Made by a program: the position numbers and the translations under genes
Assembly: GCA_001724265.1 (NCBI GenBank)
Contig: MEDY01000031.1
Location: forward strand, 62,001 to 121,149
DNA from: Rhizaria sp. SCN 62-66
Lineage: Eukaryota
DNA: 59,149 nt
Direction: 5' to 3'
In this document: positions 37,176-58,259 of the stretch, piece by piece
Position numbering within the stretch: position 1 is the stretch's first letter
Layout of the letters: each line of letters begins with the position of its first letter
Notes under the pieces: model-generated
The model's input: the letters and a program-made list of their open reading frames with translations, nothing else
Told to the model about the DNA's origin: nothing
Databases searched by the model: none

Positions 37176-39323
37176 ATGGACGCGGGTTCTATCCTTGCTG
37201 AGGCACCGCAGCCGAGCGCCGTGCCGCACAACGCGTTTCGCGCGTACGAGCGCGCGCTGAAGCAGACGAAGCACCAGAGCGGACGCTACATCCTGCCCAG
37301 CGATCTGGGCTGTGTGCTAGACGTGCGCGGCGAGCTGCCCGCGCACGCCTCCGCGGCCGCGCGCGTCGTCCCCGTCGCGTCCCAGCGCGTCGACGGGACC
37401 TGGGATCTCCACGTCGAGCCCGGTTTCGACGCTGACTGGAGCTACGAGGCCCCCGAGCTCACCCCCACCGGCGCAATTGCTGCCAACGCTAGCATTACAG
37501 CCGCCGCGAAGAACACTGCTACCGGCGCTAATCCCGCGGCGCCGGCGGCCGCGCCGGTACGCGGCCCCGCACCGCCGCCGCTGCCGACGCGCGCCGCGGC
37601 TGCGGACGCGTGCGGGCCCGGCCACGCGCGCGTATTCGCGTTCCGGCACGCACCCGGGCTGTTTCTCGTCTCGCGCGCGCTCGACTCGCGCGAGCAGTTC
37701 GCCTGGGCCCTGCGCGCGCTCACGCAGTTCGCCGACGCGCCCTACACGAACCTCACCAACCTGCACGGCGCCGACCGCGACAGGACGGCCGAGCTCTTCT
37801 GGCGCGCGTGCCGCGCTAACGCTGACGCCGCGGCCGACGCCGGCCACCAGCAGCGTCTGCATAAGCGCGCGCGCACCGCCGCCGCCGCGACCGGGACGCC
37901 CGTCACCGCTGCTGCCGGCGTTACAAAGCCCGCTGTCGACGACGCAGAGACCGGCGCGGGCCCCGCTGAGCGCTCTGCGCTGCCGCTGCCGTGTCCGTGC
38001 CGGCCGTCGCCGCTGGGCGCGCGATCGCTGTATGAGTACCTCGACTGGCCGGGGCCCAGCGGCGCGCCCGCCACTTTCGCGCCGCTACCCAACGCCCCAA
38101 CGGCGAGTTTGCACAGTGACGCAGTGGCGGGGCAGAGTGGGGCGCAGGAGGACTGGGAGCTGTGCGAGTGCGAGCGAGGCGCGTGTCCCACTGCAAACCG
38201 CTGCCACTTGCGCTGGCCGTCTGCGAACGACGCTCCCAGCGCAGCCGAGTCAGAGACTGCGAGTGCGCATATGAGTGACTGTGAGCGTGGACGTGACCGT
38301 GCGTGTGGGGCGTGCTGGCTGTCAACGCAGCAGCCGCACGTGCCGCCCTCGCTCCGCCCTGGCAACCCGGTCGCCGCGCAGCCCCCACCAGTCCCATCGG
38401 CCGACTCGTCAGCTACCGCGGCGGCGACGACATCAGATGGCAGCGCAGCGACGCCCGCGAGTGCGAGCGCGAGCGCGAGTGCGGCGCTCCCCCGCAGCGC
38501 GCTGCCGCGGCCGGCGGACCTGTCGCTGCTGGCGCCGTTGCGCTGGGCGTCGCTGGGCGCGCGCTACGACTGGACGGCGCGCGAGTACCTCGACGCGGGC
38601 CCCTCGGCGCCCGCACTGCCCGCCGCGCTGGCCCAAATCACGACGCGGGTGCTAGCCCCCTTGACCGCCGCCGGCCTGGTCCCCGCGTCGGCTCCGGAGG
38701 CCGCACTCGTGAACTTCTACCCGCTGGGCGGCGCAATGGGCGCGCATGTCGATGACGCCGAGCCCGCGGTGCGGCGACCCATTGTCTCCGCGTCGCTGGG
38801 CGCGTCGGCGGTGTTCCTGGTCGGCGCCGCGACGCGCGCGCTGGCCCCGCTGGCGCTGGCGCTGCACTCGGGCGACGTCATCGTCCAGGCGGGGCCCGCG
38901 CGCAGGGCGTTTCACGCCGTCCCGCGCGTGCTCGAGCGCTCTTCGCCCCTCCGCGCGCTGCACGCCGCAGCCAGGGCGCTCGTCGAGGCGCGCGCGAGGC
39001 AGCAGGTGCAGAGCAAAGGGAGCGAAAACGATACTCAAGTTACTGCGAGTGGCGACGGGCAGCGGCAAGAGCGCGACGCGGTCGAGAACGAGTTCTGCGC
39101 GCTGATGGACGCGTGCGCGGAGACGCGTTTGCGGTACGCGCTGAGCTAGCGCGAGGTCGTGGAGTTCGTGTTAACGGTGCTGGGCGTATACCGCATCAAC
39201 TTCAACACGCGACAGGTCTCCGACGAGGGCACTATGCACCCGCTGGACGTGCGCAAGCACTTCCCCGTCGACGCGGTGCTCAAGGGCGTCTACGCAGGCG
39301 ACTCACTGCCAAAGGCGGAGTGA
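37176..39323 (+). CDS. ALKBH1: ALKBH1-like Fe(II)/2OG dioxygenase, read through an in-frame TAG at 39147-39149
   Basis: LRWASLGARYDW, EAALVNFY, GAHVDDAE, PIVSASLG, LHSGD, FHAVPRV lie before the TAG; RINFNTRQV lies after it; TGA at 39321-39323. Confidence 0.9.
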
Positions 39324-39547
39324 GTCTGGGCTCGTGCGACGCGGATGTGTGCATTTATATAGCGACCTCTGTTACGGTGTGAGTGACGCTTACAAAACCA
39401 GCCTCAGCTGCTCGCAGTCGAGGGTCACAAGAAATCGTCAGATTTGGTGAAAGATTCCGTTGTTTAAGAATATAATATCGCCATCGTAAATTTACATAGA
39501 GAACCTATTTATTACTAATTTATTATCTCTTGAATTGTTTGTCTTAG

Positions 39548-42500
39548 ATGTCTTTCCTTCGACTGCCGTCTTGGTGCGCGCAGTCGCATGGAAAGGTGAT
39601 CGCCGCGCTTGGCGAAATGGGCATGTGCGCCTACTGCATGCTCCGTTTTCTCGACAACCGCAGCGAACGGTTTTACAGTCTCCCCGAACACGACCTCATC
39701 GAGGTCATGCTCCCTGAGGAGTTCTGCAATCCCCCCGCAGACGCCCCTGTGGCTGACGCCACTTCGACCGCTGCCGCATCAGCCGATCCCGCTGCCGACG
39801 CCGTTCCCGCCGCCGCGCAGGCGCCCGTGCCCGTGCACGAGCACCTGCGCGGCGCCAAGACCGCGTTGCAGACGCGCGGGTACTGCCCGCTGTGCTACGA
39901 GCTGCTGCCGGTGAGCGAGCGCGTGTGCGACCTGGTGGCCGCGGCCGTGGCCGACGCAGACTACGAGTTCTCCGACTTCTTCCTCGCGCGTACCGTGCCT
40001 GCGCCGCTGGCCATTCGCCAGCACGGCGCCTGGATTGCGCTGGGCCGCCGATTCCCCGGACTCGCGCCGTTCAGCGACGACGCCGGCATGGAGAAGCACG
40101 TGGTCGAGCTCAAGGAGGCGGCCAAGCTCGCGCACCCTCCGCGCATCGCAGCCGCCGTGAACCGCCACCGCGCGGCCCGCGCCGCGCGCACCGTTGCCGT
40201 CGTCGCCGCCGAGCGCGGCTGCGCGGCGCCACCGCTGCCCGCCGCGCTCGACGCGCTGCTCACTTCAGAGACCCGCGCCGCCGCAGCCGCCGCGGCCGCC
40301 GCGGTCCTGGGGGTGGCGTCGCTCCCGGCAGACGCGCCCACCGTCACGCTCGACGCGCTGCTGGCGACGCCCGAGACGGACGAGCGCGGCGCTGCTGTGG
40401 GCGGCGGGGACGCGGACGCGGACGCGCCGCGCAGCTCTGCGGGCACCGACGCAGGCCGCCTGCATACGCGCCTCGTGAACCTCGCGCCCGCTACTTTAGC
40501 AGCGCGCGAGGGCGACTTCACGATCAACACGCTGTACCTGGCGGCGCCCGTGCCCGCGGCCGCCGAGGCCGCGCTAACGGCCGAGATCGAGCGCGCGCAG
40601 GGCGCGTTCTCCAATGGCCGCCGCAACGGCCGCGGCGGGCGCGGCGGCGGCCACGGCGGCGGGCGCGGCGGCCACGGAGGGGGTTTCGGCAACGAGAACA
40701 ACCACAACCGCGGGAGCGCGCTGTCGATCAACACGAACCTGCCTAAGACTATCGGCAAGGTCTCGTGGACGACGCTCAACGCGCACGGCTTTGCGCCGCC
40801 GCGGCTGCCCACCGCGCCGCTGGCGCCCGGCACGCAGTTGACGGCCTCGGGTCCGCAGGTGCCGTATCTAATCCAGGCCGCGGTACCGGTGCCGGTGCGC
40901 GCGGCGACGCCCGCCGCCGCCGCCGCCGCCGCGGAGGCCGCCGCCGAGGCCGCCGCGCGCGGGGTGAGCGTGCTCGCGGCCCACTACGCGGCCGTCTCCG
41001 GCACCGAGGCCGTGCCCATGGCCGACGACTGCGCTGACACTGCTGCAGCAGCGAGCACCAGTGCCAGCGCCAGTGCCAGTGGGGGCGCGGAGTGCTCTGA
41101 GAGCGCGGAGCGCGACGGCACGGAGCAGCCCGACGCGAAGCGGCCCTGCCTCGCCTCTGTCGTCACAAACGCAACTGCCGCTGGCGCGAATGCGAGCGCG
41201 AGCGCGAGCGATGCTGCGGTTGTGCCGCCGCGGGGTTCCTTCGTGCCGACGGCGCTGGCGGTGCTTTTGGCGCGCGACCGCGACCGCGCGGAGCCGCGCA
41301 CGGGCGTCAACACGGGCGCAGTCATCCAGATCTCGCCGTATCTCTGCGTCGAGGTTGCGTGCTTCCACCGCAGCCTCTTCGTCATGGGCATGTACGAGAA
41401 GCTCAGCCGCGTCGTCTCGCAGTCGGCCTGGTACGTCCCGCTGCTGCCCCATGAGCTCTCGGCCGTCACTGCGGCGACGGCGACCACGACTGCGAGTACT
41501 GCTGAGGCTAACGGCGACGTCGCGCTTGACCCCACTGGTGCCGCTGCCGCCGCTGCTGCTGGGGATGCCGTGGTGAGCGGTGACGGCGACGCTGATGATA
41601 AGGACAAAGATGACGACGACGGCGACGACGGCGGCGGCGACGATGACGACGAGGACGGCGGTGGCGGCGGCGCTGGTGTGCCTGGTGGCATTGTTGCGCG
41701 CCAGAGCCGCGGGTTTCAGAAGAAGCACGCGACGACGGCCGACGAGGACGAGGGCGGGCCCTTTGCGGAAACCTCGGTCGAGTCCGAGCTGGCATTCCAC
41801 CTGCTGCCGCACTTCTGGCCCGGCGGCGTGGCGGGCTACCGGGCGGCGCCGCGCGGCGCCCCGGGCCCCGCGCCGCCGCAGCTGGCGTGTGACCCCCGCG
41901 GCGTGCGCGCGCGGTCCGAGGCGGCATGCCACCCGTCGGCCGCGCTCGTCGACGCCACGACGCTGGGCTTCACGCGCGCCGCCACGGGCGCGCTGCCCGC
42001 GCTGGCCGCCGCCACGGACGCAACGGCCGCGTCGCTGGTTGCGTACAGCGGGTACCGGTTCAAGTTCCACTCGTCGGGCCGCGAGGACCTCAACGTCCGC
42101 ATGCTCGGCTCGGGCCGCCCCTTCTTCCTCGAGTTCACCGACCCGCACCGCGCCCCGCGCCTCACGCCGGCGCTGCTCGCGCGGCTGACCAGTGTGATTA
42201 ATGCCAACGCGCTGGCCGTGGCGCTGCCCGCGCCGCTGCAAGCGGGCGACACGGCGGCCTTCGCGGCCATGACGCGCGGCATCGGCGAGAAGCGCAAGCG
42301 GTACCGCTGCGTGGTCCACTGCGAGCGCGCCATCGCGACCGCGGCGGAGCTGACCGCCGCCGTGGACACCGAGCAGGAGCTGACCATCACGCAGGAGACG
42401 CCGCTGCGCGTGCTGCTGCGGCGCTCTGCGCTGGCGCGTGTGCGTACCGTGAGCCGTCTGCGCACGCAATGGCTATCGCCGCACTGGTTCGTGCTCGACC

Positions 42501-42634
42501 TCGAGACGCAGGCCGGTACTTATGTTAAGGAGTTCGTGCACTCGGACCGCGGCCGCACCGTGCCGTCGGTCACCGCCATGCTCGGCGCGCCCTGCACCAT
42601 CATCCAGCTCGACGTCACGGACCTCATTATGTGA
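39548..42634 (+). CDS. PUS10: tRNA pseudouridine synthase Pus10
   Basis: N-terminal CxxC..CxxC, GMYEKLSRVVSQSAW, FHSSGREDLNVRMLGSGRPF, QETPLRVLLRR, TQAGTYVKEFVHSDRGRT, QLDV. Confidence 0.93.
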   Translation: MSFLRLPSWCAQSHGKVIAALGEMGMCAYCMLRFLDNRSERFYSLPEHDLIEVMLPEEFCNPPADAPVADATSTAAASADPAADAVPAAAQAPVPVHEHLRGAKTALQTRGYCPLCYELLPVSERVCDLVAAAVADADYEFSDFFLARTVPAPLAIRQHGAWIALGRRFPGLAPFSDDAGMEKHVVELKEAAKLAHPPRIAAAVNRHRAARAARTVAVVAAERGCAAPPLPAALDALLTSETRAAAAAAAAAVLGVASLPADAPTVTLDALLATPETDERGAAVGGGDADADAPRSSAGTDAGRLHTRLVNLAPATLAAREGDFTINTLYLAAPVPAAAEAALTAEIERAQGAFSNGRRNGRGGRGGGHGGGRGGHGGGFGNENNHNRGSALSINTNLPKTIGKVSWTTLNAHGFAPPRLPTAPLAPGTQLTASGPQVPYLIQAAVPVPVRAATPAAAAAAAEAAAEAAARGVSVLAAHYAAVSGTEAVPMADDCADTAAAASTSASASASGGAECSESAERDGTEQPDAKRPCLASVVTNATAAGANASASASDAAVVPPRGSFVPTALAVLLARDRDRAEPRTGVNTGAVIQISPYLCVEVACFHRSLFVMGMYEKLSRVVSQSAWYVPLLPHELSAVTAATATTTASTAEANGDVALDPTGAAAAAAAGDAVVSGDGDADDKDKDDDDGDDGGGDDDDEDGGGGGAGVPGGIVARQSRGFQKKHATTADEDEGGPFAETSVESELAFHLLPHFWPGGVAGYRAAPRGAPGPAPPQLACDPRGVRARSEAACHPSAALVDATTLGFTRAATGALPALAAATDATAASLVAYSGYRFKFHSSGREDLNVRMLGSGRPFFLEFTDPHRAPRLTPALLARLTSVINANALAVALPAPLQAGDTAAFAAMTRGIGEKRKRYRCVVHCERAIATAAELTAAVDTEQELTITQETPLRVLLRRSALARVRTVSRLRTQWLSPHWFVLDLETQAGTYVKEFVHSDRGRTVPSVTAMLGAPCTIIQLDVTDLIM

Positions 42635-42885
42635 GCGGCGGCAAAAGCTGCGAATGCGCATTCTCGAATGCGGTGAAACGTACTTGTGTTGAGTATGAAG
42701 GCCCACGGTGCATTTGATGTACGGTCGATATATCCATCTATAACGATGATTTCCCTTAGTTACAGCTTAAATAGAGTTTGTTTATTGATTTTACTGTTTT
42801 GATGTTGAATTAGGTTCTGTGTAGATGACGTAGTTTCTGTTTTGTTGTTGTGCGTGTTGACATTGCGAAAACTGTTTTGTTGCGT

Positions 42886-44174
42886 TTACGCGTCCTTGTC
42901 CATACTGCTATCGGAATTCTTCGCAGCAGCGGCCGCGGCAGCGGCAGCCTTGCGACGCTCACTCGGCTGCGGCAGCGACGAGTCCGACGCCGGCGCATCA
43001 TCTATGATGGACAACACGAGAATAAAAGGGGTGACAACGGAGTCGAGTCAGCAAACGAACGGATGAAAAACAAGATTTTTGGAAAGGCTTAGCAGTTAGC
43101 GATCGCAAAACGAAAAGAATTGGACGTACTGGGGGCGTTTGTGGCGCGGTTGGCCCAGCGCGCGAGGCGCTGCGCGGCGAGATCGACCCACGCGAGCGTC
43201 GGCCCGGGCTCGGGTAGCACGTCGGTGTAGAAGAAGTCGCCGCCCATGGCCGTGTAGTAGTTGACGCGGTACTGTGCGACCGAGCGCGCGGGTACGGGCG
43301 CGCGCGGCAGCGAAGCAACTTTAACAGCGACGGTCGCGCCGTCGTCGCCCGGCAACGCGGCCGCAGACGACGACGACGAATCGGAGACCGAGGGGTAAGC
43401 GAGCGTGGCGGCGTGCGCGCGCTGAGGCCCGACGACGTCGACGTCGGTGGCGACGTTGATCGGCGACATCGCGGGGTCCACACGCGCAACCGTCCAGCGT
43501 TCGGCTCCGATCAGCTCCGCCTGACGCTGCGAGTAGGGGGAGAACGCGAGAGCAAGAGTGAGTAGGTGTAGTGGTTAGAAATGTCAGTGCGTTTGTGCAC
43601 GAGATACAGAAGTGGGTGCAGTGAAGGAAGGTTATAGGGAGTACAGATAATCTTAGAATATACACGATAAAACGTATGGTGCAGTCGTGGCAAAATGTTA
43701 ACATTCGCGTGCAAATGGTTTTGGGGTGTCGCGACGTACGTGGAAAATGCCCCAGGGCACGAGCGAGTCGGTGGGGTTGACGCTCTCGACCTTGGTGACC
43801 ATGCTCTTTTCGCTTTCGCTCTTGACGCGCTCGCGGGCGCGGCGGCGGTCCTCAAGGTCGGTGACCTGGTCAAGCGAGAGATCGAGCAGCTTGCCCTTGA
43901 ACGTGGACACGACAGACTCAATCTTCTCGGGGAACAGGTTTGCACGGAGGTTCTCGATCAATGTCGTCGGGCGGATCTCGATGCTCTTCATCGCCAAAAC
44001 AAGCGCTGCCAGGTTCAGTTCCAGGTTCGGCTGACGCTTATACATGCCGCGCACCAAGTCAGCACGCGGCGGGAAGCTGCGGCGGAACAGGTCGCCCGAA
44101 GCAATCGCAGCCAGCACATTGGGGTCCTGCGGAGGCATCGCGATTGCCGGGTTCCTCCGGTTCTCGTTCGACAT
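42886..44174 (-). CDS. Hypothetical protein (~315 aa), 3 exons
   Basis: Exons 44174-43740, 43526-43130, 43001-42886 join in frame via two GTACGT..AG introns; ends DKDA-TAA; an additional upstream exon is possible. Confidence 0.72.
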
Positions 44175-44967
44175 GCCGATCGCTAATTGCAGTAAAAAAA
44201 CAAAAACAAGCAAGTAAGCGTAATTAATATATAATTGCGTAATTATATCTCCTGAGCTTCACGTTTATACCACGAAGACGGCTAAAATAATCAGTGACCA
44301 CCGCTTTTTGACGGCTCGCTCTCCGATCCCAGCCGTCGTCCAGAGAGTTCTCTAGCGTGGGGGAAATCCACGTCTGTAACTCCCCATGGCGAGTCTGCGC
44401 AGGCCTCTATTGCCTTTTTCTGTACTTCTAAGGCACATTTCTCTATCTTTTCAATAGTTAACCTTGGCTCTGGCTCATGAGTCGCGTACACTGTCCCTCC
44501 GTAAAGTGTGGGACGCAACGACTCCCTTGCCCACAGTGGCTTTACCCGTCGCACCTGCTCACGCCCACTAGTTCTTTTTTGCAACATTTGTCAGGCTGTG
44601 TCCAAGTATAGTGCAAGCTGGTGGGCCTCCCTAATTGCTCCTTGACATCCCCCACTCCGTAATCCCCTGCCGGCGAGCAGCCCGCGACGGAGAATGTCAT
44701 CAACGACCACACCATTCGACATCGACATTGACGACCAGCGTCTCATGCGGAACCCAGTACGTCACTCAATGCGATATCACTTTGGAACTCGGTATTTTCG
44801 CATTTTTTGTATCATATGTACCCTTTGAAGCGCAAAACACTTTCTCTAAACCAACATTCTCGCCCATTTTCCGAACCCAACCCTGTCATACATCACAGAG
44901 CCAAATTATCAGACAGAAGAAGATTTTCCAGGCCGGAAAGTCTTCTCAGGTGCTTGGCGACGACGCC

Positions 44968-46497
44968 ATGACGGTGCCCTTGGCGGCGCACCGGCGCAAC
45001 CCGTCGGGTACGCTTGTGGGCGGCATTCCCGCGTCTGTGGCCGCGCAGTTGTCCCCGCTGCACGCCTCACGTACCCGCGACGCCGTTATCTTGCAGCAGC
45101 AGCAGGCGCAGCAGCAGCAGCAGTCGCAGCCCTCTTCGGACCGCGACACGTCGCGCGACGGCCCCTACGCCGCCTACTACGCGCCCGGTGCCTCGGGCGT
45201 CATGACCGGTATGATTGGCGTGGGTATGGGGGGTGTGAGCGGCATGGGCATCGGCGTTGGGCCCGGCCTGGGATTCAACGCCGTCGCCACGGGGCCCAAC
45301 TCGTTCGAGTTCTCCCCGCTGGGCGACCCGCAGCCGCTCCCTCTGACGCTGACGCAGCCGCAGACTCAGCAAACGCCCACGTCGTCGTCGTCGTCTGCGT
45401 CGTCGTCTGCGCCAGCGCTGTCGTCGTCGCTGTCATCATCGACGCCCCCGATCCAGGCGCCGTCCCCCGCGCCCGCGCCGCTCATCTCGCTCCCGGCCAC
45501 GCTCGCATCGGCTTCTGGCGTCCCGGCCTCGACGCTCACCGCCTTCAACGCCTTTGACGCCGGCTTGGCCAGCGGCAGCTCCATCAGCCCGCGCTTCGGC
45601 CCCCGCGCGCCCGCCGCCGGCGCGGGCCCGCCCGGGGCGGAGCTCTCGGACGCGCAGTCCTCCGTCGCTGCATTTAGCACCGCCAGCAACAGCCCCTACG
45701 GCGGCAGCGGCGGCAGCGTTGGCGGCGGCGCAACAGCGGCGAGTGGTGGCGGCAGCGGCAGCGGCAGCGGCAGCGGCAGCGGCACTGGGACGATGCCCGA
45801 CGGCCTGCTGCTGTTCGACACCGTCGACGGGTCGTCGACGGCGGTGGCGGCGCTGGCTGCAGGCACCGTGACGCACCGGCCGTCGTCGCACCGGCTGCCG
45901 TCGCCGGTCCCGCCGCGGCCGCGCACCGTCGCGCGCACAGGCTCCGCGGTTGACGCCGCGCTCTCCTCCTCCGGCTTCCTCCCCGTCAATAACGCGAATA
46001 ACAACAGCAACACTGTGAACATCAACAGCAACCTCAACAGCTCGTTCAACAGCAGCGCGGCGAGCATGGGCAGCGTTAGCGTGACGGGTCCGGGGGCAGA
46101 GGCTGGTGACGCGCCTGCGCCGCACACGCCCGCCGGCTCCGTCGCCGCGCAGTCACGTACGCAGGCGCAGTCTCAGCAGCAGCAGCAGACATCGCCGCCG
46201 CGGTCGCACGTGCGGTCTGCCTCGTCCTCCACGCTGCCTCACGTATCCACCACCAACTCCTCCGCATCAGCCTCAGCATCAGCCTCAGCGTCGGCCTCGG
46301 CCGCGGCCTCTGGCTCAGCGTCTGGCTCTGCGTCGGCCTTCGTCTCTGGTTCTGCGTCGGCCATGGGCGAGCACAGCCCTCCCGCGGGCCCGCAGTCGCA
46401 TTTGCACTCTCATTCGCACCCGCACGACCCCGCTGTTTCATCCTCGTCGTCCTCGGTCGGCGGCGGCGGCGGCGACGGCGGCGGCAACGGCGGCGGT

Positions 46498-46532
<35 letters not shown>

Positions 46533-48083
46533 TGTGATGTCGGTGGCGGCGCTAGGCGAGTCGCTGCGCGCGCTGCAGCGGGAGCAATAGCTGCTGCTGC
46601 AGCACGCCGACCGCCTCCACGTGCAGCAAACGGCGCTCTGTGACGCGCTCGAGGAGCATACTGCGCGTGAGCCCGCGCTCGCGGCCGCCGCCGCCGCCGC
46701 CGCGGCTGGAGGCGCCGCGGCCGCGGGCGGCGCGGGCACGCTGCGGGCGCACCGCGCGCGCACGATGCAGCTGCAGGAGCGCCAGCTGCTGCTGCAGCAG
46801 CACCAGCACAACCTGCTGCTGCAGCAGCACTCGCTACAGACACGCCAGCTCGCGCTGCAGCAGGCGTACCTCGACTCGAAGCAGAGCACGCTGCGCGCAC
46901 TCTCCGTCTCGCACCCCGCGTCCAGCTCAAACTCCCCCGTCGGCGCGCGCGCGCACCGCACCAACTCCGCCTCGGGCGCCTCGTTCGCGTCCACCAGCAC
47001 CAGTGCGGCGCCCAACGGCTCGTCCTTCGGCTCCGCGCTCGCTGGCACTGGCACGGGCGCTGGTACGGGCGCTGGTGCGGTTGTGGGCGGTGCGCTGGCC
47101 GGCGGCGGCTCGCCCTCCGGCTTTGTCCGCACGTCGGCCGGTCTGGGCTCCGGCTCAGGCTCGGGCTCGACCGCGTCGACCGGCTCCCCGCAGCCGCGCG
47201 CGCTGTCCCCCGCGTTTCCGGGCGTCGCCGTCGGCGTCCCCGGCTCTGCGGGCGCGGGCACGCACTCCAGCTACGGCGGCTCTAGTGCGGGTGCGGCGGG
47301 CGCGTCGCCGCCGCCCAGCTCGCGCGGCGTGCCCCCGCAGCTCTACTGGGCCGGCGACACCGGCGTCGGCGCCACTGCGGCGACCGCGGCAGCGGCCGCG
47401 GCGACACCAGCGGGCGGGCGCATCCTGACCCCGCTGCACGGCGCCGCGTCGTGCCCCACCTCGGCCGCCACGAGCGCGGGCGCCGGCGCGCCGCTGTCGC
47501 CGCTCGCCGGCATGGCCACGACGGCCGCGGCAGCGCAGCAGGCCGCCGCCGCCGCCGCCGCCGCCTCTGCGGGAATCATCCGCAGCCTCTCGCCAACCGG
47601 CTCGCCCGTGCCCTCAGCGCTGCCCTCGCGCACCAACTCGCGCCTCGCCGGCGGCGTCGGCACCGGCGTGTCGCCGCTGATGGCCTTCCGCGCGCTGTCA
47701 CTCACCGCCGCCACGGCCGCGGCGGCGATTCTGGCGCCCGTCAGCACCACCAACTCGCCCGTGCCCGGCGGCGCGGCCGGCAGCTCCGGCTCCCCCACCG
47801 GCACTAACACTGGCGCTGGTGCTGGCGTCGGCGTGGGTCTGGGACCGAACGCGATGCCCGCGCCCGCGCCCGTGCCCGCGGCGGCGATCGCGGCTGCGCT
47901 GGCGGCGGGCGGGCCGCTGCTGTCCGCGGCTGGCGGGTCCCCGCTGAACCCCGCACGCCGCCAGCCCTCTTTCTCCGCCACAGCTGCGGGCGCCAGCGGC
48001 GCCGCCGGCAACGGCAACGGTGGTGGCAGTGGCAGCTCACAGTCGCCGGGCCTCGTCGCGGGCGCCCTTGTCCAGCACACGAT

Positions 48084-48124
<41 letters not shown>

Positions 48125-49608
48125 CTCTGCAGTCGCTGTCACCGACGCCGACGCCGGTGATCTCGCTGACGCACCCGCCGCTGGTGACCTTCGACGGCCC
48201 GCCGCGGCCCGTCCCGCTGGGCGCCACCGCGGGCTACACAGCCGGCGGAGTGCCGGGCCAGCTGGCGCTGCCGGCGCAGGCCTCTGGCTCGGGCACGGCC
48301 TCGGGCCCGGGCTCGGTGTCGGTATCACCCGCGCTCTCGCCCGCGCATTCACTCCAGTCGCAACAGCAGTCGAAGCCCCTGTCTGCGGGCCCCACCGGCC
48401 CCGGCGCGTCCCCCGCGGGCGGTCTGTTCGGGTCCGCGTCGAGCCTGAGCGTGCCCCCCTCGGCCACGTCGGCCGGCGGCGGCGGCGGCGGCGGCGTGGC
48501 GCCCGCGTTAGGCCCCGGGGGCTCGGCCTCGCTTCACTCGCACTCGCTGTCAGTCTCGCACCCGCCGCCGCCGGGCGCCCTCGCGCTCGGAGCCACCGGC
48601 GCCACCGCCGCGGGCGCAACCATGGGCGCAGCGATGGGCGCGTTTGCGCGGCAAGGCAGCGGCGCCGCGGGCCCCGTGCCCGGGCTCGGCGCGCAGCGCA
48701 CGTCCTTGACGCTGCCGCGCGGCGGGTTGGGGCTGAGCCTCGGGCTCGGGCTCGGCGCCGTCCCCGCCGCGGGCGCCGTGCCCGGCTACGGGCCGCAGCA
48801 GATCGCCGTGGGCTACGGCCCGCAGCCGATGTACGTGATGCCCCCCGCGGTGGCGTCGCGCCACGGGCCCAACTCTGGGCTGGGGCTCACGCACGCGCAC
48901 AGCCTCGGCCTCGGGCTTACAGGCGGCACCGGCGCGACCGGCGGCGCAACCGGCGGCCCCAGCGGACTGCCGGCCGTCGCGGGCGGCGCCAACGCGGGCG
49001 GGCCGCTCTCGGTCTCCGCCGACGACGCCGCAGCCGCCGCAGCCGCCGCGATCGCGATCGGCGGCGCGCCTGGCCCCAAGGGCTCGGTCTCGATCGGCTA
49101 CGCGGCCGCGCCGGGATTCGCGACAGCGCCGGGTGCCAACGCGGGCCCCGCGCTGGGCCCCGGGATGGGCGCCGCGCTGCCGGTGGGCGCGGACGTGCTG
49201 CTGGTCGAGGACGTGCGCGTGAGCTCCAAGGTGGCCGAGATGGCGCTGCGGCGCGAGCGCTTCACGACAATGCTGGTCGAATCGGGCGAGGACGCCGTGG
49301 CGGCGGCCAAGAGCCGGTCGTTCCGCGTGATCCTGATGGACATCCACTTGCCTAAGATGTCTGGCATCGAGGCCACGCGCGCGATCCGCGAGGACGAGCA
49401 GCGCTGCGGGCGCGCGCCGTGCCTCGTGCTGGCCCTCACTGGTAACGTCGCCGCCTCGGATCTGCAGACGTACCGTGCCGTCGGCATCGACGGCTGCATC
49501 GCCAAAGGCCGCCTGCTCGGAGACGCGCTCAATAAGGCGCTTAAGGCCAACCAGGCCTTCCCGGGCAAGTTCGTCTCGATCATCGACAACGACGTCAAGG
49601 TCTACTAA
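44968..49608 (+). CDS. Large low-complexity protein with a C-terminal response-regulator receiver domain, read through an in-frame TAG at 46588-46590
   Basis: ORFs 44635-46590 and 46621-49608 share a frame with a single TAG between; REC motifs VLLVED, VILMDIHLPKMSGIEATRAIR, LALTGN, GIDGCIAK; TAA stop. Confidence 0.82.
46501..46530 (+). repeat. (TCG)10 coding microsatellite, poly-Ser
   Basis: Read directly from sequence. Confidence 0.9.
48085..48123 (+). repeat. (CAG)13 coding microsatellite, poly-Gln
   Basis: Read directly from sequence. Confidence 0.95.
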
Positions 49609-51528
49609 GACCTCGCACGGTCGGCCGCGCGGCGGAGCGCGGCAGCAGACGCTCGTCTTTATTTGTATTTTCTGATGTTTACTTTACTATGTGTTGTGTG
49701 TGTGAACGAACCAGCGAGTTTGGAGGAGAACTGCTTCAATCAGCCTCTCCCCTCAGCTTCGTCGGTCTCTCCGTCAGATTGCTGTTTGTCTGTCGGTTGC
49801 TCAATATCTCTATCCCTCTACTTCTCTTACTTCTCTGACTACTTCCTCGTTCTCTCATTCGCTCGATTGCTAGCGTGGTTGCGCAGTCGGGCGTCTCGCG
49901 GCACTCGGCCATTTGCTGTCGTCATTCCTCGGTAATTCGTGTTGGGTGACTGTTCATAGTGCCTTCCTCACACGAGGCGATTCGAATGCGACTTTGGTCG
50001 TCAATCTCTTTTTTTTAAACAAAATCATCATAAGTCTCTTATAATTTTTTAACTCATTTGAATAATCCTTATGCTAAACTGGTTGGCGCTTTTCCTTCGT
50101 GTGTCCTGCGATTATCGTTGCTGCAGATCACTCGTTTGCGCGCGCCCTTTTTATGTTCTCCCGTCTTCATTCCCCCCCAATCTCTCTCGTTTTATCGTTG
50201 ATTCTCTTTCTTTGTCTTTGTCACATTGTGTCGTTTTGTTGTTTTCCTTTTTTTGATCCTATCTGCTTTCTTATGTCTCCGCTGTCGCCTCGTGCACACG
50301 CAGACTCGGCGCAGCGCCCGTCGCTGCGCTCTTCGTTGTGTTTGCCATGACGCGATGTTCGCCGATATCCTCTTTTGATTGGTCCGTTCTGTTCCCTCGC
50401 TTCAAGCTTTGATCTCGCTCTCATACGAGCCAAGAGTGTTCGTCCGCAGCCGGCCCTTTGCCCCCGCGACCCCCCACACTCGCTCACCTTTCGCACGCCC
50501 CCCAGTCTCGGGTGCCGTCCTTCTCGCCGTCACGCCTTCTGCTCCGCGCACCACCCTGCCACTGCCTCGCCACACCCTGCCACTCTCCGCGCCTCCTGTT
50601 GCATGCCCAACCGCCTCGACGTCCCCCGGCCATGCTTGACGCACGCCGCGCGGGCGACTCTGGCCGGCCTCGCTGCCGCTGGGGCTGCTGCAACTGTTGT
50701 TGCTGCTTCTGGGGCTGTGAGTGTGGCTGGCTGCGTGTATGTGAGTGTGGGACAAGCGCCGACGCCGACACCGACGTCTCTGTCGGGCATGCCTTATGTA
50801 CATGTACTACTTCACTTCTTTGCGTCGGTATCCTCCACTATTTTTATTTTTATCGTCAAACGGTAATGAATAGTCAGCTTAACAAAATACACACACATAA
50901 TCTTATTTCATATCTCCGAATATGCTATTGTTCCAGCAAAGCATCCTTCAACGATGTCACCAATCAACAATTACGTGGAAAATGCAAGACTTAAAATTGT
51001 GTGTATTCTCTATCACTGCGTCTAAACTGACGAGCACAGGTGTCAAGACGGTCGGATGTGTGCAGTGCAGAAAGCATCCGGCTATCGAGGACAATCTGCC
51101 AGTTCACGGACAACAGCAACTGAAGTGCAGTGGAGCAATAAACGGGACGGGAAAGGGGAACACAGTCAATCTGCGCGCCTCGTCGTCGTCGAAACAACGA
51201 GGCGCACCGCCGCGACAGTCGCGGCCGACGGTCAAACCGCTGGCGAGGGGATGCACAGCCCCGCGAGTGGCCGGCGCGGCGACAAAGGCGCGCGCTTGAA
51301 TCAGGTGGCAGTCACTCGCAGGGTGTGGAGTTCGGAAAAGGGCGTTCAACAAAATCAAAGTGCAAGGGGCAACGTTGCGAGCTCGGTGCTGGCACAGGCG
51401 CAGAGGCAAACGTGAACATGGTCACATGCACAGACATAATAAAAACAGGAGCAGGGCTGAATGTACACAGGCGCCGCAAATGATGCGACGCGGTGGCGGA
51501 GGGAAGTTCCTGGCACGACAAGGCCCGC

Positions 51529-52713
51529 TTAGAGCTGGGGGATAGTGATGCCGCGAGAGAACATGTTGCAAGCCCCGGAAGCAAGGCGGAAGTAGCCCTT
51601 CTCGCCCTATTGTAAGGAGAACCAGAAAGGGAATCGGAAAATGTGGAATGAATATGAGTGGCTATCAAGGAGACAAAGGTTTAAAGAGAGATCTTGATCA
51701 AAAAAAATACGTAACATATAATCGATATTTCAACTATATACAAAAGCATTCACACGTACCCACTGCTCGCCCCAGCTGTTGCGGATAATGTAGTAGTTAA
51801 TGAAATTGTCACCCAGACGCTGGGTCGAGTAGCCGACCGCCGTGACGGCGTGGTTGGGGCTTTCGCCCTTGCACGCATTGGGGAGAATAATGCCCTCGCG
51901 GTAGTGCTGGAGCGCCTCGCCAGCGTAGAGGGCAATGTACGCGGGGTTGATGGAGATCAAGGCGAGGAAGTTGTTGTCGTTGCCGGCGGCGTGCGAGAAG
52001 GCGCGGATCTTGCCAACGGGCGCGGGGAGTTTCTTGTCGCACTTGCCGATCGAGGCCGAGTTGTAAGGCTTCTGGGACTCGAGGTAGTAGCCGGACTTCT
52101 TGAGCGCGCCGAACGCGCACGAGTAGGCGCCGCCGCGGCAGCCGCCGCAGGCGCACTCGGTGAGTGCAGCGGGGGAGATGTAGTCGGCCGCTGGGGAGCC
52201 CTTGATGGCGAGCAGCGCCTCGACCGTCGAGGTGCTCGTGTGCGCCCAGCACGAGCCGCAGGGACCCTGGTGGCGGACGGTGCGCAGGACGCCGGGGGTC
52301 GTGCGCCAGTCGAAGCCCTTCTGGAAGTTCTCCTGCATGGCCTCGGCAGACTGCTCAGCGGCGTTGAAGTGCCTCATGCCGTTCTCGGCCTCAGAGTCGG
52401 CCTCGAGGAACGAGGCCGTGGACCCGTTGTCGCCGGTGTACTTGGCAATGAATTCCGCGGTCGTCATGTCGGAGAACTGCGTCGGGGCAAGCGTGTACGT
52501 GCGGTTCGCACTACCGTTCAGGGTCGTGATGCGGTCCAGGTTGCGGCGGAAAACGGCGAGTTTTGCGGCGAACGCGCTCGCAGCGTACGACTTGCGGAAC
52601 TTGGCGATGTACTGCGTAAAGATCTTCACGTAGTCAGCCTCGGTCGAGCTCGCATCTACCACGGAGACGGCGAGCAGCGCCACAACGACGAGCACAGTCG
52701 CAGAAAGGCGCAT
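51529..52713 (-). CDS. Papain-family (C1A) cysteine protease with signal peptide and I29 prodomain, 2 coding exons
   Basis: MRLSATVLVVVALLA; QFSDMTTAEF; FDWR; QGPCGSCWAH; NHAVTAVGY; IRNSWGEQW | intron 51759-51607 | GEKGYFRLASGACNMF..QL-TAA. Confidence 0.93.
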
Positions 52714-53137
52714 CGTACACTGATTGGCGAGCAAGACGAGTAAGAGAAGGAGAAAGGGCGAGTAGGTAGAGCCATATATGAGCATTATTGAAGAAATGTA
52801 GATAAAAACATAGAGAATCCGTACGTATGTACCAAAATATGTCTGAGATACATCAATACGTCGAGCGACAGAGTCGCCTGACGGGGAGCTAAAAACAAAG
52901 GCAGCGTCATGTGCTTGTGAAGCTCTGGTTCCCAATATCAGATCACCACGCTGCACAAATCCGACATCGAAGTACATTCAACATAAATCCAAGTACACGC
53001 GTTGATTTCAAACCGGATTTAATCGCCTGCAGTTCAAAACACTAATAGCTCGGTGTGAAATTCGAGTCAACAAAACGCGACGAGACAGACCGACGTGAGG
53101 AGGAGGTTTATTTGACTGTGAGAATTTTTACGAACCG

Positions 53138-53196
53138 GGTCGGTCGATCGCGGTTGTCGGTCGGTCGGTCGGTCAGTCGGTCGGCCCGGCCGGCCC
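53138..53196. repeat. Imperfect (GGTC)n tetranucleotide tract
   Basis: ggtcggtc..gtcggtcggtcggtcggtcagtcggtcgg in the intergenic region. Confidence 0.7.
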
Positions 53197-53463
53197 GCAA
53201 TTCGGTCATCCCGCTCGAATTGCGTGGGGCATCTTTACACAGGGCACACTGCGCCGTAATGGTCGTGGATAGTGCCGGTGTGCAACTTCTGGGTTACACT
53301 CAGAGGTAGTTCGGATTTTCTTCAAATGGGAAAGTCTGCAGAAGCGTCTAGGCGGCAGATTTGCTCCAGAAAAGGGGAGTTTCGGCCGACTGTCGTCCGA
53401 ACCCGTCGACTCACGACTTGACCAAGACTTGTCTAGCGCTTAATTACGCGTGACTGCGGAGCC

Positions 53464-53527
53464 ACATCGTGATTAGGTTATCCCTGACCTGATGTGGGTC
53501 ATGTTTTGCTGCTAGGTTGGCTGATGT
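53464..53527 (+). ncRNA. Candidate box C/D snoRNA with antisense to LSU rRNA CAGGGAUAAC (snR38-type target region)
   Basis: C-like GTGATTA 53469-53475, guide GTTATCCCTG 53477-53486, CTGA 53489 and 53521, short ACA/TGT terminal stem. The C box is imperfect. Confidence 0.5.
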
Positions 53528-53669
53528 CACTCTTGGCATGACTATCCCCGCTAAGGTGTCATGTCGTGCCTGAGACTCCGTCTCTCGGCACGACATTTGC
53601 GTGCTTAAAGGTATGTCAATGCAGCCAAATGGTGTACAATTGGGCTCAAATGCATTCATTGCTTTACCG

Positions 53670-53757
53670 CTTGACATGATGATTTACTGTAATCTCGTTA
53701 ACCTGAATTTTGACAGATGAAAAACAACAACCATTCATACCATACTACTGACTCAAG
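53670..53757 (+). ncRNA. Box C/D snoRNA, SNORD30-like
   Basis: Terminal stem CTTGA/TCAAG, C box ATGATGA 53676, guide AATCTCGTTAA antisense to conserved LSU UUAACGAGAUU, D' CTGA 53703, C' AGATGA 53715, D CTGA 53748. Confidence 0.85.
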
Positions 53758-54048
53758 CACAACCTCATGTTCCATTCATCTAGATATCCCCGCCCACCTG
53801 AACTTCGATCTCACAAATATGTTCCATGTTGTGGACACTCCTCTATTTGTCGACATCTCCCACTTTAGGCGGCTGACACTGTCAATCAAGATCCATAAAA
53901 TCGAAATTGTATTGCTGTGTTAACAACTTGCTATCTGGCCCTCAATGTGGCCCTCATTATTTTGTCGAATCACTCAATACATAGAACACCCTTCACAAAT
54001 ACGTCAGTAAAATCATTCTGGAAAGCAACATACGACAACATCACTTCT

Positions 54049-55555
54049 TCACTCCGCGCTGTTATCGTCGTCTTTCTTCTCGGCGCTCTTCTCCGCTGCC
54101 GCAGCAGTCGCCGCCGCCGGTGCGTGCTCCATGCCGAGGATCTTGTCCGCGTCGAGCACGAGCGTCAGCGGCGCGTGGTCCGAGATACGCCCGGCCTCGC
54201 CGGCGCCGCTGCCCGCGAGGCGCTCGTCCCCGACCGCGACGCCGCGCAGCGCAGCGCCGGTCAGCGCGGGCGAGAGCAGGAAGTAGTCGATGCGCCAGCC
54301 TGCGTTCTTGGCGCGCGCCGCGAAGCGGTGGCCCCAGTACGTGTACCCGCGCCGCGCGGGGCCCCAATGAGCGCGGAACGCGTCCGTGAGCCCGCCGCGC
54401 AGCAGCGCACTGAAGGCCTCGCGCTCGTCGTCCGTGAAGCCCTTGGAGCTACGAGAGAGAAAATACGCAAAACATAGTACAAGATACAACAGAGTATCCA
54501 TCAGATCTACAAGATATAAATGCAAAGATAAGCAGCCAACGCATCGTGAATAGCAAAATATATCGCGAGAAATGTGGATAGCGCAGTGTGACGTACTTGT
54601 GGTTGGTCGACGGCGAGTGGAGGTCGATGGGCCTGTGTGCGACGTTGAGGTCGCCGCACCACACCACGGGTTTGGCCTCCTGCAGCCGGTTCAGGTACTC
54701 GCGCATTGCCGCCTCCCACACGCGCGCGCGGAAGTGCAGGCGCTCGAGCTTGTCGCCCGCGTTGGGCACGTACGTCCCCACCAGGAAGAACGCGGGGTAC
54801 TCGACGGTGATCACGCGGCCCTCGCTCGCGTTGATCGCCCAGGCCTCGGCGTACGCGGCCGCGGAGACGTCGGGCGCCGCCGCGTTGGGTTCAAGCCCCT
54901 CACAGCCCGTCTCGTGCGCGATCGCGGGCACGCGCGCCAAGTTCGCGGCGGGCGGCTTGGCGCGGTTGTCCGCGTCGAAAGGGCGCGGCGCGAGCGAGTC
55001 GGTGCACGACACGCGCAGTGGCTTGCCCAGACGGCCGTCCTTGCGCACCAGCAGCGCCGTGCCCGCGTACCCAGCCGTGGTGCCGCAGTTGTAGTGCACA
55101 GCGTAGCCCAGCGTGGCCATGCCCTCGCGCACGCCGACGAACTGCGCCTCGGTGCCCTTGACCTCCTGCAGCATCACCGCGTCTGGCCGCGGCGCGCGCG
55201 CCTTGAGAAACGGCATCAGCTTGTTCTTGACCGCGGCGCGGAGCCCGTTGACGTTGAAGGTCATGATGTGCACGTCCGACGCGCGCGCGGGCGAGGGCAG
55301 CGCGGTGTCGGACTCGTCGACCTCGCCGACGTCGTCCTCCGCGCGCGCGCCGCCCTTGCGTGCGGGCGACTTAGAGGGCGCGCTGCCCTCCTCGCTGTCG
55401 CCCGTCGACACGCGCGCGCGGCCGCGCTTCGCAACGGGGGCCACCACTACGTCGTTCGAGTCGCTGGCCGTCTCGGTCTGGGTGGCAGCGGCGGCGGGGG
55501 CAGTCGACTTGATCGGCGATGCTGCACGCTTGCGCGGGGATTGGCGTGTGCTCAT
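54049..55555 (-). CDS. APEX1: AP endonuclease / exodeoxyribonuclease III family (APE1-like), 2 exons
   Basis: TFNVNGLRA, LQEVK, GYAGTA, EGRVITVEY, YVPNAG, WCGDLNVAH | intron 54596-54449 | GFTDDER, DAFR, YTYW, GWRIDYFL, SDHAP. Confidence 0.93.
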
Positions 55556-56156
55556 AAATCCTTGCAGTAAACAAAATCCAATTTAAATCCAAATTTAATC
55601 GTAAGATTTGTAATTTGACAAAAGAGTTTCAGTGCATACGACGGATGTTGCATGTCATTATGCAACTTTAAAGTTACACTGACCTGTGGCGCGAAGCAGA
55701 CTGGATCGGTGACCTGGCGCTCTCGCTGCTTCACCACAATCAACTGAGGTGGGTAATCAAATGAAGGATTGTGACGATGCTGACCGCCGTTGAAGAATTC
55801 GGTGTCAATTGGAAAAATTAAATACCTGTTTGTCTTCATCCCTTTAATTGTGAGTGCATTGGTGACCGACTTTCAAATGTACTCGCGCTTTGAAATAACC
55901 GTTGAAGGATAAGCACTCAGTCTCGAAGAAACGTGCTGAGTCACTTGTTTGGACACTCATAGAGGCGTTCAAACGGGATGTACATAACAGCTCCAACAGT
56001 ATTGACGTCGCTTTAATGTGGCACACCTTGCATTCTCCTGTCTGCTGCTCACCTTGCTCTTGATCCACCACCTGTACTGTCCTTCGTCCCCTTGCATTGC
56101 CTTCGCGTGTCACTCCGCTGCAACACCGCAACGGTCACACACAGCCCCAGCCCTCA

Positions 56157-57515
56157 ATGTCGACCGCTGTGCGCATCCAGGTGCGCGGCCCCGACAACGC
56201 GCGCCACGTGCTCACGCTGCCCGCGTCTGCGACGTACGCGCAGCTCGTCACCGAGGTCACCGCGCTCTTCAGCGGCTCAATCTCCTCCCCGGAACTGCTC
56301 GCGGGCTTCCCGCCCGTGGTGCTGCGCGACCCCAGCCCGGCGGGCGCGACGCTGCTATCGGCGCTCTCCCCGCCCGTGCGCAACGGCACCTCGCTCACCG
56401 TGCAGCAGGCCGAGTCGTCGTCACTGGCCATCGAGGGCGGGTCCTGGGACCTGCCGCCCGTCCTTAACGCCTCGGCCTTCGCGCATGCGGGCGGGCGCGG
56501 CGCCGTGGTGCGCATCTGCGTGCCCTCGGACAACTCGTGCCTGTTCCACGCGGTGAACCTTACGCTGCGCGGGCTGACGCCCTCCCACGCGGCCGCCGAT
56601 GCGGCCCGCGAGACGATCGCGAACCTGCTGGCGACGGAGCCGACGGTGTGGACGGCTGAGGTGCTCGGCATGAGCAGCGCGGCCTACCAGCGTCACATCA
56701 TGCGCTCGGACTCTTGGGGCGGCGCCATTGACTGCGTGCTGCTCGCGCGCCACTTCCGCGCGGAAATCGTGGTGCTGGACTACTTCAACCTGGCCGAGCA
56801 CGTCTTCGGCGACGGCGAGGGTTACTCGCGCCGCGTCTACCTGCTCTACCGCGACGACGGGCAGCACTCGCACTACGACGCGCTGGCCTTCGCGCCCGCG
56901 GGCAGCTCCGCGCTCGAGGACCAGTGGCGCAACGCGCAGTCGGCGCAGGTGCCGCAGACGTCGACTCCACTCACCGCGGCCGCGGCCTCGCCCACCGGCC
57001 GCGGCAACGCCTGCGTCGCCGTGTCGGGCGGCGCGGCGGGCGAGCAGCTGGCGTTCGCACCGCAGGACCGCGCCGTGTGGGAGGCGATGCGGCGCGCGGC
57101 GGAGCAGCTGCACGGCTCGGCCGCCGACCAGGGTCGGTGCCAGCGCGTCGCGCACTGGCGCAAGGAGCTCCTCGCCGCGCCCGCCAAGCCCGGCGACGCC
57201 GCGCGCACCAAGGTTGTCGACGGAAACATCGTCTCCTCTTCGGCGGCTGCGGGCAGCGCGTCTGCCAAGGCATCGCCCATGATCGCGGCCATGCCCGTGC
57301 CCTCCGCAGCGCCCGCGCCCGCGCCTGTGTCGGTGTCCACGGCTTCGTCGTCATCAGCGTTTTCGTCGTCTTCGTCGTCAGCGTCAGCGAGGTCGCCGTT
57401 CGCGTCCCCCATCACGCGCGGCCCAGTGACCACGGTGCCCGTGTCGGCGCCCGCGTCCTCGACCGCGACTGTGACCAGTTCCAATGCGAGTAGCGGCTCT
57501 GGTAGCGGCGTGAGC

Positions 57516-57571
<56 letters not shown>

Positions 57572-58259
57572 TTCCGGGGACGTGTGGGTGTGCGGCACAT
57601 GCACATACAACAACAAGCCGCTCGTCCCGCAGTGCGGCATGTGTAGCGCCACAAACCCGGTGTACTTGGCCGCGCTCGAGCACGGTGACGACTTCGCGCG
57701 CGCCGGCGACGACGACCACGGAACGCATGCTGCCCATGGTCAGTCCTCCACCGTCGGTTCCCGGTCTAATAATAACAACAACGGAGGGGACTACGTGCGG
57801 CCGCCGGATGAGACGCGTCGCATGCGCCTCATGGACGACTTCGACTCTGCGCCCGCGTCGCGGTCCGTCAGTAACGTCAGCAACAGCGGCGCCGGGCACA
57901 ACAACAACAGCAGGGCGCGCGCGGCGGTGCGGCCGTTCAACTGTGAACGGTGCACGCTGTTTAACGAGGCCGGCAGCGAGGCCTGCGACGCGTGCGGCTC
58001 CGCGCCGCCTGCCGACGCGCTCCCGTAGGCAAGCCCCTCCTCATCAGCAGCCCGCACTCCCAGCGGCAACGGCGGCAGCGGTGGCGGCGGCAGCGGGGGC
58101 TTCATGTCGCAGCTGATGGGCGCGGGGACCATCCCGGACTGGACGTGCGAGAACTGCCATACTGTGCAGCCGGGGAACATGGCGCGCTGCCGCGCGTGCA
58201 ACATCCCCAACGAGCAGTTCCTCGCTGCGCAGAACGAGGGCGGCTGCACCGTGCAGTGA
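56157..58259 (+). CDS. OTU1/YOD1-like deubiquitinase with ubiquitin-like N-terminus, three RanBP2-type zinc fingers and CaaX, read through an in-frame TAG at 58026-58028
   Basis: IQVRGPD..LLAGFPP; VPSDNSCLFHAV, WGGAID, HYDAL; fingers WVCGTCTYNN..CGMC, FNCERCTLFN..CDAC and, after the TAG, WTCENCHTVQ..CRAC; ends CTVQ-TGA. Confidence 0.88.
57516..57572 (+). repeat. (GGCGCG)n coding hexanucleotide repeat, (Gly-Ala)n linker
   Basis: About 9 copies, read directly. Confidence 0.9.

Follow-up and report, generated by a model that had tools for sequence, protein, structure and literature searches.

Gene content of the window

The 59,149 bases of DNA analysed here (hereafter the window; 66% guanine plus cytosine (GC), zero N) carry three protein-coding genes that are each interrupted by one in-frame TAG, and our subject is the meaning of that codon: we consider it likely that UAG is a sense codon in the organism concerned, with UAA and UGA as its stops. 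The eukaryotic genes of the window include those for ARPC3, a myotubularin with a FYVE finger, Pus10, cathepsin L, an APE1-like nuclease and a TRM9-like methyltransferase, as well as the tail of the gene for ribosomal protein S4 (RPS4). The same window holds the three genes with a TAG, which encode an ALKBH1-like dioxygenase, a receiver-domain protein and an OTU1 deubiquitinase. Sequencing runs containing near-identical DNA are labelled as bioreactor, wastewater and activated-sludge metagenomes and come from several studies. The features on which the argument depends are listed below, with the in-frame codons numbered TAG1 to TAG3; the contigs named in the list are discussed further on.

37176 to 39323, plus strand: gene for an ALKBH1-like 2-oxoglutarate (2OG)/Fe(II) dioxygenase, 715 codons with the TAG read through, stop TGA at 39321-39323 (Pfam 2OG-FeII_Oxy_2, 1e-30; matches to ALKBH1 in PDB, 5e-23)
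39147 to 39149, plus strand: TAG1, codon 658 of 715 in the ALKBH1-like gene, unchanged in contigs of X3 and X4 and in L002
39192 to 39218, plus strand: RINFNTRQV, the final conserved strand of the AlkB fold, located 15 codons after TAG1 (12-sequence alignment A1)
44968 to 49608, plus strand: gene for a receiver-domain protein, 1546 codons with the TAG read through, stop TAA at 49606-49608 (Response_reg, 8e-15)
46588 to 46590, plus strand: TAG2, codon 541 of 1546 in the receiver-domain gene, in a Gln/Leu-rich helical stretch
49195 to 49506, plus strand: response-regulator receiver domain, residues 1410-1513 (Pfam PF00072, 8.3e-15)
56157 to 58259, plus strand: gene for an OTU1-type deubiquitinase with a UBX-like N-terminus and zinc fingers, 700 codons with the TAG read through, stop TGA at 58257-58259 (Pfam OTU1_UBXL, OTU, Zn_ribbon_RanBP)
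58026 to 58028, plus strand: TAG3, codon 624 of 700 in the OTU1 gene, located in the linker that joins zinc fingers 2 and 3, with no change in contigs of X3 and X9
58146 to 58199, plus strand: third CxxCx10CxxC finger (DWTCENC...CRACN), in frame behind TAG3, with the same spacing as fingers 1 and 2

Coding signal behind the TAG codons

An earlier note on this DNA had claimed that three unrelated genes contain one in-frame TAG each, that GC3-rich coding sequence continues behind it to a TGA or TAA, that no gene contains an internal TAA or TGA, and that TAG is very rare. All of these points hold. The three codons were located, the Pfam identities of the genes agree with those proposed, and each gene contains exactly one internal TAG and zero internal TAA or TGA; save for these three TAGs, every gene model in the window is open. 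Behind TAG1, TAG2 and TAG3 the frame remains open for 57, 1005 and 77 codons, until TGA 39321, TAA 49606 and TGA 58257, respectively. The GC content at third codon positions (GC3) of the 50 codons that follow is 0.90, 0.86 and 0.84, and behind all 15 TAA/TGA stops scored it is 0.30-0.58; the original frame retains the best codon score behind all three TAGs. Likewise, the next 120 nucleotides (nt) have a GC content of 0.62-0.76 behind the TAGs, whereas behind gene-ending TAA and TGA codons it is 0.33-0.55. Real gene ends are marked by such a downstream collapse, as at TGA 39321, behind which GC falls to 0.53, and at the TGA of the OTU1 gene, where GC3 drops from 0.94 to 0.56. In-frame UAG occurs 3 times in about 16,000 codons (the summed lengths of the open reading frames (ORFs) in the window, whose starts are not all fixed), or at about 0.2% of the number of Leu codons.

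A scan of stop codons for coding signal on both sides was rejected as an unbiased count, being nonspecific: antisense frames also score well, and every TAG that it flagged was either one of the three sites or lay antisense to established genes. Codon-aligned antisense frames of real genes in this window combine high GC3 with fair codon scores, and many of them terminate in TAG, which is the complement of CTA. Such frames mimic genes with an in-frame or terminal TAG and are a trap for automatic code inference in this genome.

Conserved protein parts lie behind the TAG codons

The alignment A1 comprises the ALKBH1-like protein and 11 relatives from an exhaustive HMMER search. H524, D526 and H580 are invariant or nearly so in it, and the HxD...H residues are accompanied by the C-terminal RxNxNxR strand, in which R673, N675, N677, R679, Q680 and V681 are nearly invariant (at least 90%), all of them behind codon 658. 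The two arginines of the RINxNxRQV strand presumably bind 2OG, as in AlkB enzymes; because the strand that bears them lies behind TAG1, a protein cut at TAG1 should be dead. The ALKBH1-like protein also has a N-terminal extension of about 440 residues and a 70-residue insertion before the last strand, which are common to the metagenomic proteins P0006, P0007 and P0008 and to P0080, an entry labelled Lygus. The closest relative, P0007 (49% identity), seems to run into an intron of the local type described below in the middle of the catalytic domain ('VR' being the translation of GTACGT). A word-based protein search with residues 440-715 gave no match, probably since Ala-rich words swamped the candidates; the relatives were found by the exhaustive HMMER search.

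In the receiver-domain gene, the start was taken to be ATG 44968, and there may be a further exon upstream, with its donor at 44757. Its codon score is 0.32 bits per codon before TAG2 and 0.41 after it, and the receiver domain sits 870 codons behind TAG2. The first ATG behind TAG2 is 58 codons away, and the GC content of the next 120 nt is 0.76. Both halves of the locus are one gene, because this 58-codon stretch of 76% GC is unlike any intergenic spacer in the window. In the OTU1 gene, the third zinc finger follows TAG3 in frame; translated in all six frames, the whole window contains the CxxCx10CxxC pattern 4 times, and 3 of these occurrences are in the frame of the OTU1 gene.

The TAG codons are real in the DNA

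All three TAGs belong to the DNA itself and are no artefact of assembly. Contigs of X3, an independent study, span TAG1 and TAG3 with 0 differences, a contig of X4 spans TAG1 and one of X9 spans TAG3, and the JGI contig L002 is identical over 35900-40964, which includes TAG1; no run shows another letter at TAG2. Moreover, the 657-amino-acid product that stops at TAG1 is recorded from 7 contigs, there is a record of a 69.7-kb contig bearing the locus, and the databases carry truncated pieces of the ALKBH1-like protein of 657 and of 51-54 amino acids. An exact look-up of truncated products of the receiver-domain and OTU1 genes recovered 1 of the 5 pieces, the 51-amino-acid OTU1 tail, which is present on 3 contigs; it recovered none of the 3 read-through forms and adds no support for TAG2. 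A metagenome scan with Pus10 as query returned only two fragments, both 100% identical and of the same organism, and a scan of prokaryote genome contigs with the ARPC3 alignment, aimed at mis-binned eukaryote contigs, returned none.

TAG is absent from gene ends

After intron resolution, 17 termini are visible (15006-58618), of which 7 are TAA, 10 are TGA and none is TAG. The earlier note had counted 18 (8 TAA and 10 TGA); an 18th gene was not found, and the absence of TAG stands. TAA ends the genes for a CAAX-box protein, a glycosyltransferase, ARPC3, g13, the receiver protein, cathepsin and RPS4, and the remaining 10 genes end in TGA. At least four ends (ARPC3, Pus10, APE1-like and RPS4) are fixed by homology that reaches the end of the profile. 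TAG makes up 500 of the 2370 stop trinucleotides in the window (21%), and at this share the probability of finding it at 0 of 17 ends is 0.018; the absence is suggestive, not decisive. The base that follows the stop is a purine in all 17 cases (11 G and 6 A), which suggests a strong four-base termination signal in this organism. The bases that follow the three in-frame TAGs are C, C and G.

No plausible intron covers the TAG codons

Introns were defined in the APE1-like, RPS4, cathepsin, g7 and g13 genes. They begin with GTACGT (GTACGC in g7), are AT-rich or pyrimidine-rich, and end in a CAG or TAG acceptor, as does the reference example:

54449 to 54596, minus strand: intron of the APE1-like gene, with a GTACGT donor and AT-rich, pyrimidine-rich sequence, ending in TAG

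Hence an apparent TAG-ended ORF at 54449..55582 on the minus strand is no case of a terminal TAG: this TAG is the acceptor of the APE1-like intron, and the stop of the gene is TGA 54049. GTACGT occurs at 22051, 22293, 26248 and 44757 on the plus strand and at 59061, 54596, 51759, 43739, 43129 and 25606 on the minus strand, and GTACGC at 23533 on the minus strand. Six of these sites (59061, 54596, 51759, 43739, 43129 and 23533) are donors of defined introns, and most of the sites listed precede AT-rich or pyrimidine-rich sequence (GC of the next 100 nt, 0.31-0.57), in sharp contrast to the GC-rich exons.

We then considered all frame-keeping GT..AG pairs of 18-400 nt around each TAG. There are 107, 104 and 108 such candidates at TAG1, TAG2 and TAG3, of which 1, 0 and 0 have a GTAYG donor or a GC content below 0.52, and the single one, at TAG1, would cost ALKBH1 its conserved C-terminus and its stop codon. 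The earlier note had stated that no GTACG flanks the TAGs and that they are not in introns of the local type. The former part does not hold, since GTACGC is present at 39134, 13 nt before TAG1; the latter does, since no acceptor pairs with it to form an intron that preserves both the frame and the conserved C-terminus. A 16-nt mini-intron, GTACGC...TAG at 39134-39149, was rejected because it shifts the frame off the conserved motif. Thus no plausible intron of the local type covers any of the TAGs.

The RNA comparison covered four runs, and its output was dominated by low-complexity cross-matches from other organisms. Contigs of X5, a polyA RNA run, match the window with 0 differences, e.g., at 45269-45614 and 56371-57277. 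The joints listed in the RNA runs were rejected as evidence of splicing, given their short sides (20-31 nt) and non-intron ends.

Placement of the organism

For placement we used the ARPC3 gene:

21958 to 22872, plus strand: ARPC3 gene, last exon 22453-22869, ending in TAA (Pfam P21-Arc, 1.3e-43)

Its best named relative is Guttulinopsis vulgaris (EukProt EP00461; 60% identity), followed by an MMETSP transcript (56%) and Cercozoa sp. M6MM (54%); P0168, seen only as a protein sequence, is closer (79%). In a maximum-likelihood tree of 52 retrieved proteins of at least 120 residues, with relatives pre-filtered by shared words, the window and Cercozoa sp. M6MM fall in one clade (100/97), which adjoins the Guttulinopsis group (95/78) and is separate from fungi. 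An Atlas search of ARPC3 gave no useful taxon, and Rfam found no rRNA gene in the window. As judged from this protein, the organism is probably a sainouroid-related cercozoan, next to Guttulinopsis (Sainouroidea). Sainouroids (Rosculus and Guttulinopsis) are described as frequent in wastewater plants (PMC8827150). Rosculus vilicus was rejected as the source, its genome having a reported GC content of 37.7% (PMC10770858) versus 66% here.

The closest named relative of the ALKBH1-like protein, P0080, is a UniRef entry labelled Lygus hesperus. It matches the ALKBH1-like protein and P0006 with 106-131 bits over about 200 residues, including the lineage-specific insertion and the tail, and mammalian ALKBH1 with 57-60 bits over 67 residues only. 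According to Panek et al. (2017; PMC5304391), the transcriptome of L. hesperus is the origin of the sainouroid 'Rhizaria sp. exLh', in which UAG encodes Leu. We infer that P0080 derives from exLh, rather than from the insect or from a Blastocrithidia contaminant.

Which amino acid UAG may encode

Relatives were sought with the ALKBH1-like protein, and TAG1 is thus the only one of the three sites with alignable relatives, namely the three that share the C-terminal extension. Its column holds I in P0006 (...LSIEE...), I in P0008 (...ITIEE...) and L in P0080 (...ELELPD...), opposite ...ALS-TAG-RE... in the ALKBH1-like protein, and the BLOSUM62 scores summed over the column are +10 for I, +8 for L and -8 for Q. 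Judged by eye, the site lies in register (1-4-5-8-11-12) with the hydrophobic face of the helix that comes after it. A heptad reading of the helix around TAG2, also by eye, put the TAG at a 'b' position and was set aside, as it does not separate Leu from Gln.

Leucine is our best guess, somewhat better than an even chance, because of the I/I/L column at TAG1 together with the UAG=Leu code published for exLh. The earlier note had slightly favoured Gln; this preference is not borne out, given the TAG1 column and the nearness of the organism to Sainouroidea, the group in which UAG=Leu has been published for exLh (PMC5304391). We regard Gln as unlikely, and any other amino acid as unlikely to the same degree.

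Other features of the window

An uninterrupted ORF of at least 4,493 codons occupies 2-13480 on the minus strand and runs off the end of the window, with neither intron nor stop; Pfam gave no family for it at E up to 0.001. A small protein encoded at 14199-15008 on the plus strand consists in part of repeated KKECDGKK units and ends in CIVM, which we take to be a CAAX-type prenylation box; no Pfam family was found for it. A contig of the RNA run X5 at 50227-50655, between the receiver-domain gene and cathepsin, contains no convincing ORF and may be an untranslated region or a non-coding transcript. In one X5 contig 3 bases are absent at 43366, in an exon of gene g13, which may be a strain difference.

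Discussion

Within the window, the sense reading of UAG, with UAA and UGA as stops, is the best explanation of the data taken together, i.e., the coding signal and the conserved protein parts behind the TAGs, the 0 of 17 gene ends in TAG, the lack of a plausible intron and the same letters in independent DNA. The organism would be an uncultured, GC-rich (66%) cercozoan, related to Sainouroidea and living in wastewater reactors, in whose nuclear code UAG would no longer be a stop and would stand for an amino acid, with leucine the likeliest, presumably read by a tRNA whose anticodon is CUA. UAA and UGA would terminate translation, and UAG would be used very sparingly.

Several points weigh against this reading or its parts. 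All evidence for UAG usage consists of three codons in one 59-kb window, and among the matches listed no independent contig covers TAG2. The sample of gene ends is small, and the probability of 0 in 17 is no smaller than about 0.02-0.06, a value that varies with the TAG share assumed. For the 76 residues behind TAG3, Pfam gave no family with E values up to 1; fingers 1 and 2 were called and the third was not. No listed RNA contig spans any TAG, though the polyA run X5 contains contigs of the organism. The window contains no tRNA gene of any kind (ARAGORN, Rfam) and no eRF1. The amino-acid assignment draws on one column in a poorly conserved region. The placement comes from one short protein, in a tree with two named rhizarians; Pus10 is uninformative, as its best named matches are trypanosomatids (47%); and the exLh origin of P0080 is itself deduced. 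UAG appears as a stop in single genes of Guttulinopsis and Rosculus, which probably use the standard code (PMC5304391). Finally, UAG use is 1-2 orders of magnitude below that of exLh or Iotanema, and such low use could reflect leaky or partial decoding instead of full reassignment.

The last point leads to an explanation that we consider improbable, namely that the code is standard or ambiguous and UAG is still a stop, read through often in three genes by near-cognate or suppressor tRNAs in a weak termination context. The rarity of UAG inside genes (3 in about 16,000 codons) fits this view, and so do the bases C, C and G behind the in-frame TAGs, versus a purine behind 17 of 17 real stops, C after a stop being a leaky context. 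Such a code does not account for the absence of TAG from gene ends (0 of 17), and codon bias is equally strong on both sides of the TAGs. Moreover, ALKBH1 cut at TAG1 lacks the nearly invariant RINxNxRQV strand, so that only the read-through product could work, and read-through needed by 3 of 17 genes is, to our knowledge, far above anything known for standard-code eukaryotes. A precedent exists in the context-dependent stop/sense codes reported for other protists (10.1101/2022.04.12.488043).

Should UAG be a true stop, the interruptions might instead be corrected in the RNA, which we hold to be quite improbable, or be genuine lesions, which we hold to be highly improbable. Correction could act by A-to-I editing of UAG to UGG (Trp), which is known from the sexual stages of some filamentous fungi, or by removal of unusual GC-rich, frame-keeping introns. 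That TAG alone is affected, and never TAA or TGA, matches the editing of premature stops in fungi; each TAG is surrounded by about 105 conceivable frame-keeping GT..AG pairs, and no RNA contig is listed over the TAGs. Yet the defined introns all have GTACGT or GTACGC donors and are AT-rich or pyrimidine-rich, and the candidates are unlike them, save the one that deletes the conserved C-terminus. As for editing, it leaves the absence of TAG from 17 of 17 gene ends unexplained, the organism groups with Cercozoa and not with fungi, and relatives have I, I and L at TAG1, not W. Under the remaining explanation, the code is standard and the three genes bear recent nonsense mutations, as pseudogenes or as null alleles fixed in the population. 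About 70% of transition nonsense changes in this window would give TAG (CAG 214 + TGG 53, versus CAA 49, CGA 12 + TGG 53); because most do so, the finding that 3 of 3 stops are TAG is not strong evidence on its own. Such mutations would, however, have disabled 3 of 17 genes by exactly one stop each and without a frameshift, while leaving codon bias and conserved motifs intact behind the stops; the same letters recur in contigs from other samples and studies, and the 0 of 17 TAG termini would again be unexplained.

If UAG is indeed a sense codon here, we can imagine, as a possible though rather doubtful refinement, that a free-living GC-rich cercozoan captured UAG independently or very recently, in an event other than that of exLh, and is at an early and possibly partly ambiguous stage of reassignment. 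UAG would then already be gone from all gene ends and would only be beginning to appear inside genes. In that case, wastewater relatives may reveal the order of events, i.e., loss of UAG as a stop, gain of the tRNA-CUA and change of eRF1.

Very few lineages are known to have a nuclear code that gives UAG and UAA separate meanings, and two outside the ciliates had been reported by 2017 (PMC5304391). Our literature search on sainouroid codes after 2017 returned nothing beyond the 2017 paper and the paper on the unannotated genome of Rosculus, and did not extend to supplements. If the sense reading of UAG is true, a second, environmental relative of exLh would mean either that the change reaches further or goes back further within Sainouroidea than the data of 2017 had suggested, or that it evolved twice. 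Such a relative would also provide genomic DNA in which to seek the predicted tRNA(CUA) and eRF1, which were still awaiting exLh and Iotanema genomes in 2017 (PMC5304391), and a state of extremely low UAG use, which bears on how stop codons get captured. In practice, standard gene callers cut such genes at TAG, as the truncated ALKBH1 pieces already in the databases illustrate.

Comparison with known codes

In exLh, 71 genes contain 384 in-frame UAG codons, proteasome genes use UAG more than any other Leu codon, and eRF1 has Ala at position 69 (PMC5304391). The window resembles it in that UAG alone is found in frame and the termini are only UAA and UGA (56 and 15 in exLh; 7 and 10 here), in the same broad lineage according to the ARPC3 tree, in the Lygus-labelled closest named relative of ALKBH1 and in the aliphatic TAG1 column. 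It differs in the frequency of UAG, with 3 in about 16,000 codons here, and in its source, as exLh comes from an insect and is known from transcripts only, whereas our data are genomic DNA from wastewater and bioreactor samples. Either this organism belongs near exLh, or more taxa than thought have the change, or it has arisen again.

Iotanema spirale (Fornicata) also has UAG alone reassigned, with UAA and UGA as stops and UAG as a minor codon (204 in-frame UAG in 126 genes, about 8% of Gln codons; PMC5304391). It belongs to an unrelated supergroup and uses UAG for Gln, against which the TAG1 column argues here, and UAG use is lower in our organism. The ciliate codes that split UAG from UAA (PMC10553269, PMC11687900) likewise give the two codons different meanings, but they involve other amino acids or have UAA also as sense; here UAA shows no sign of being sense and ends 7 genes. 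In the mitochondrial UAG=Leu codes (NCBI tables 16 and 22; Spizellomyces and Sphaeropleales), the codon is the same and the amino acid probably so, and a tRNA-Leu(CUA) is documented (PMC5304391). Those codes are organellar, whereas the present locus is of nuclear type, with spliceosomal introns and genes for ARPC3, RPS4 and myotubularin. Hence the pattern probably represents the already-known rare kind of code of exLh and Iotanema, of which this organism would be an additional case.

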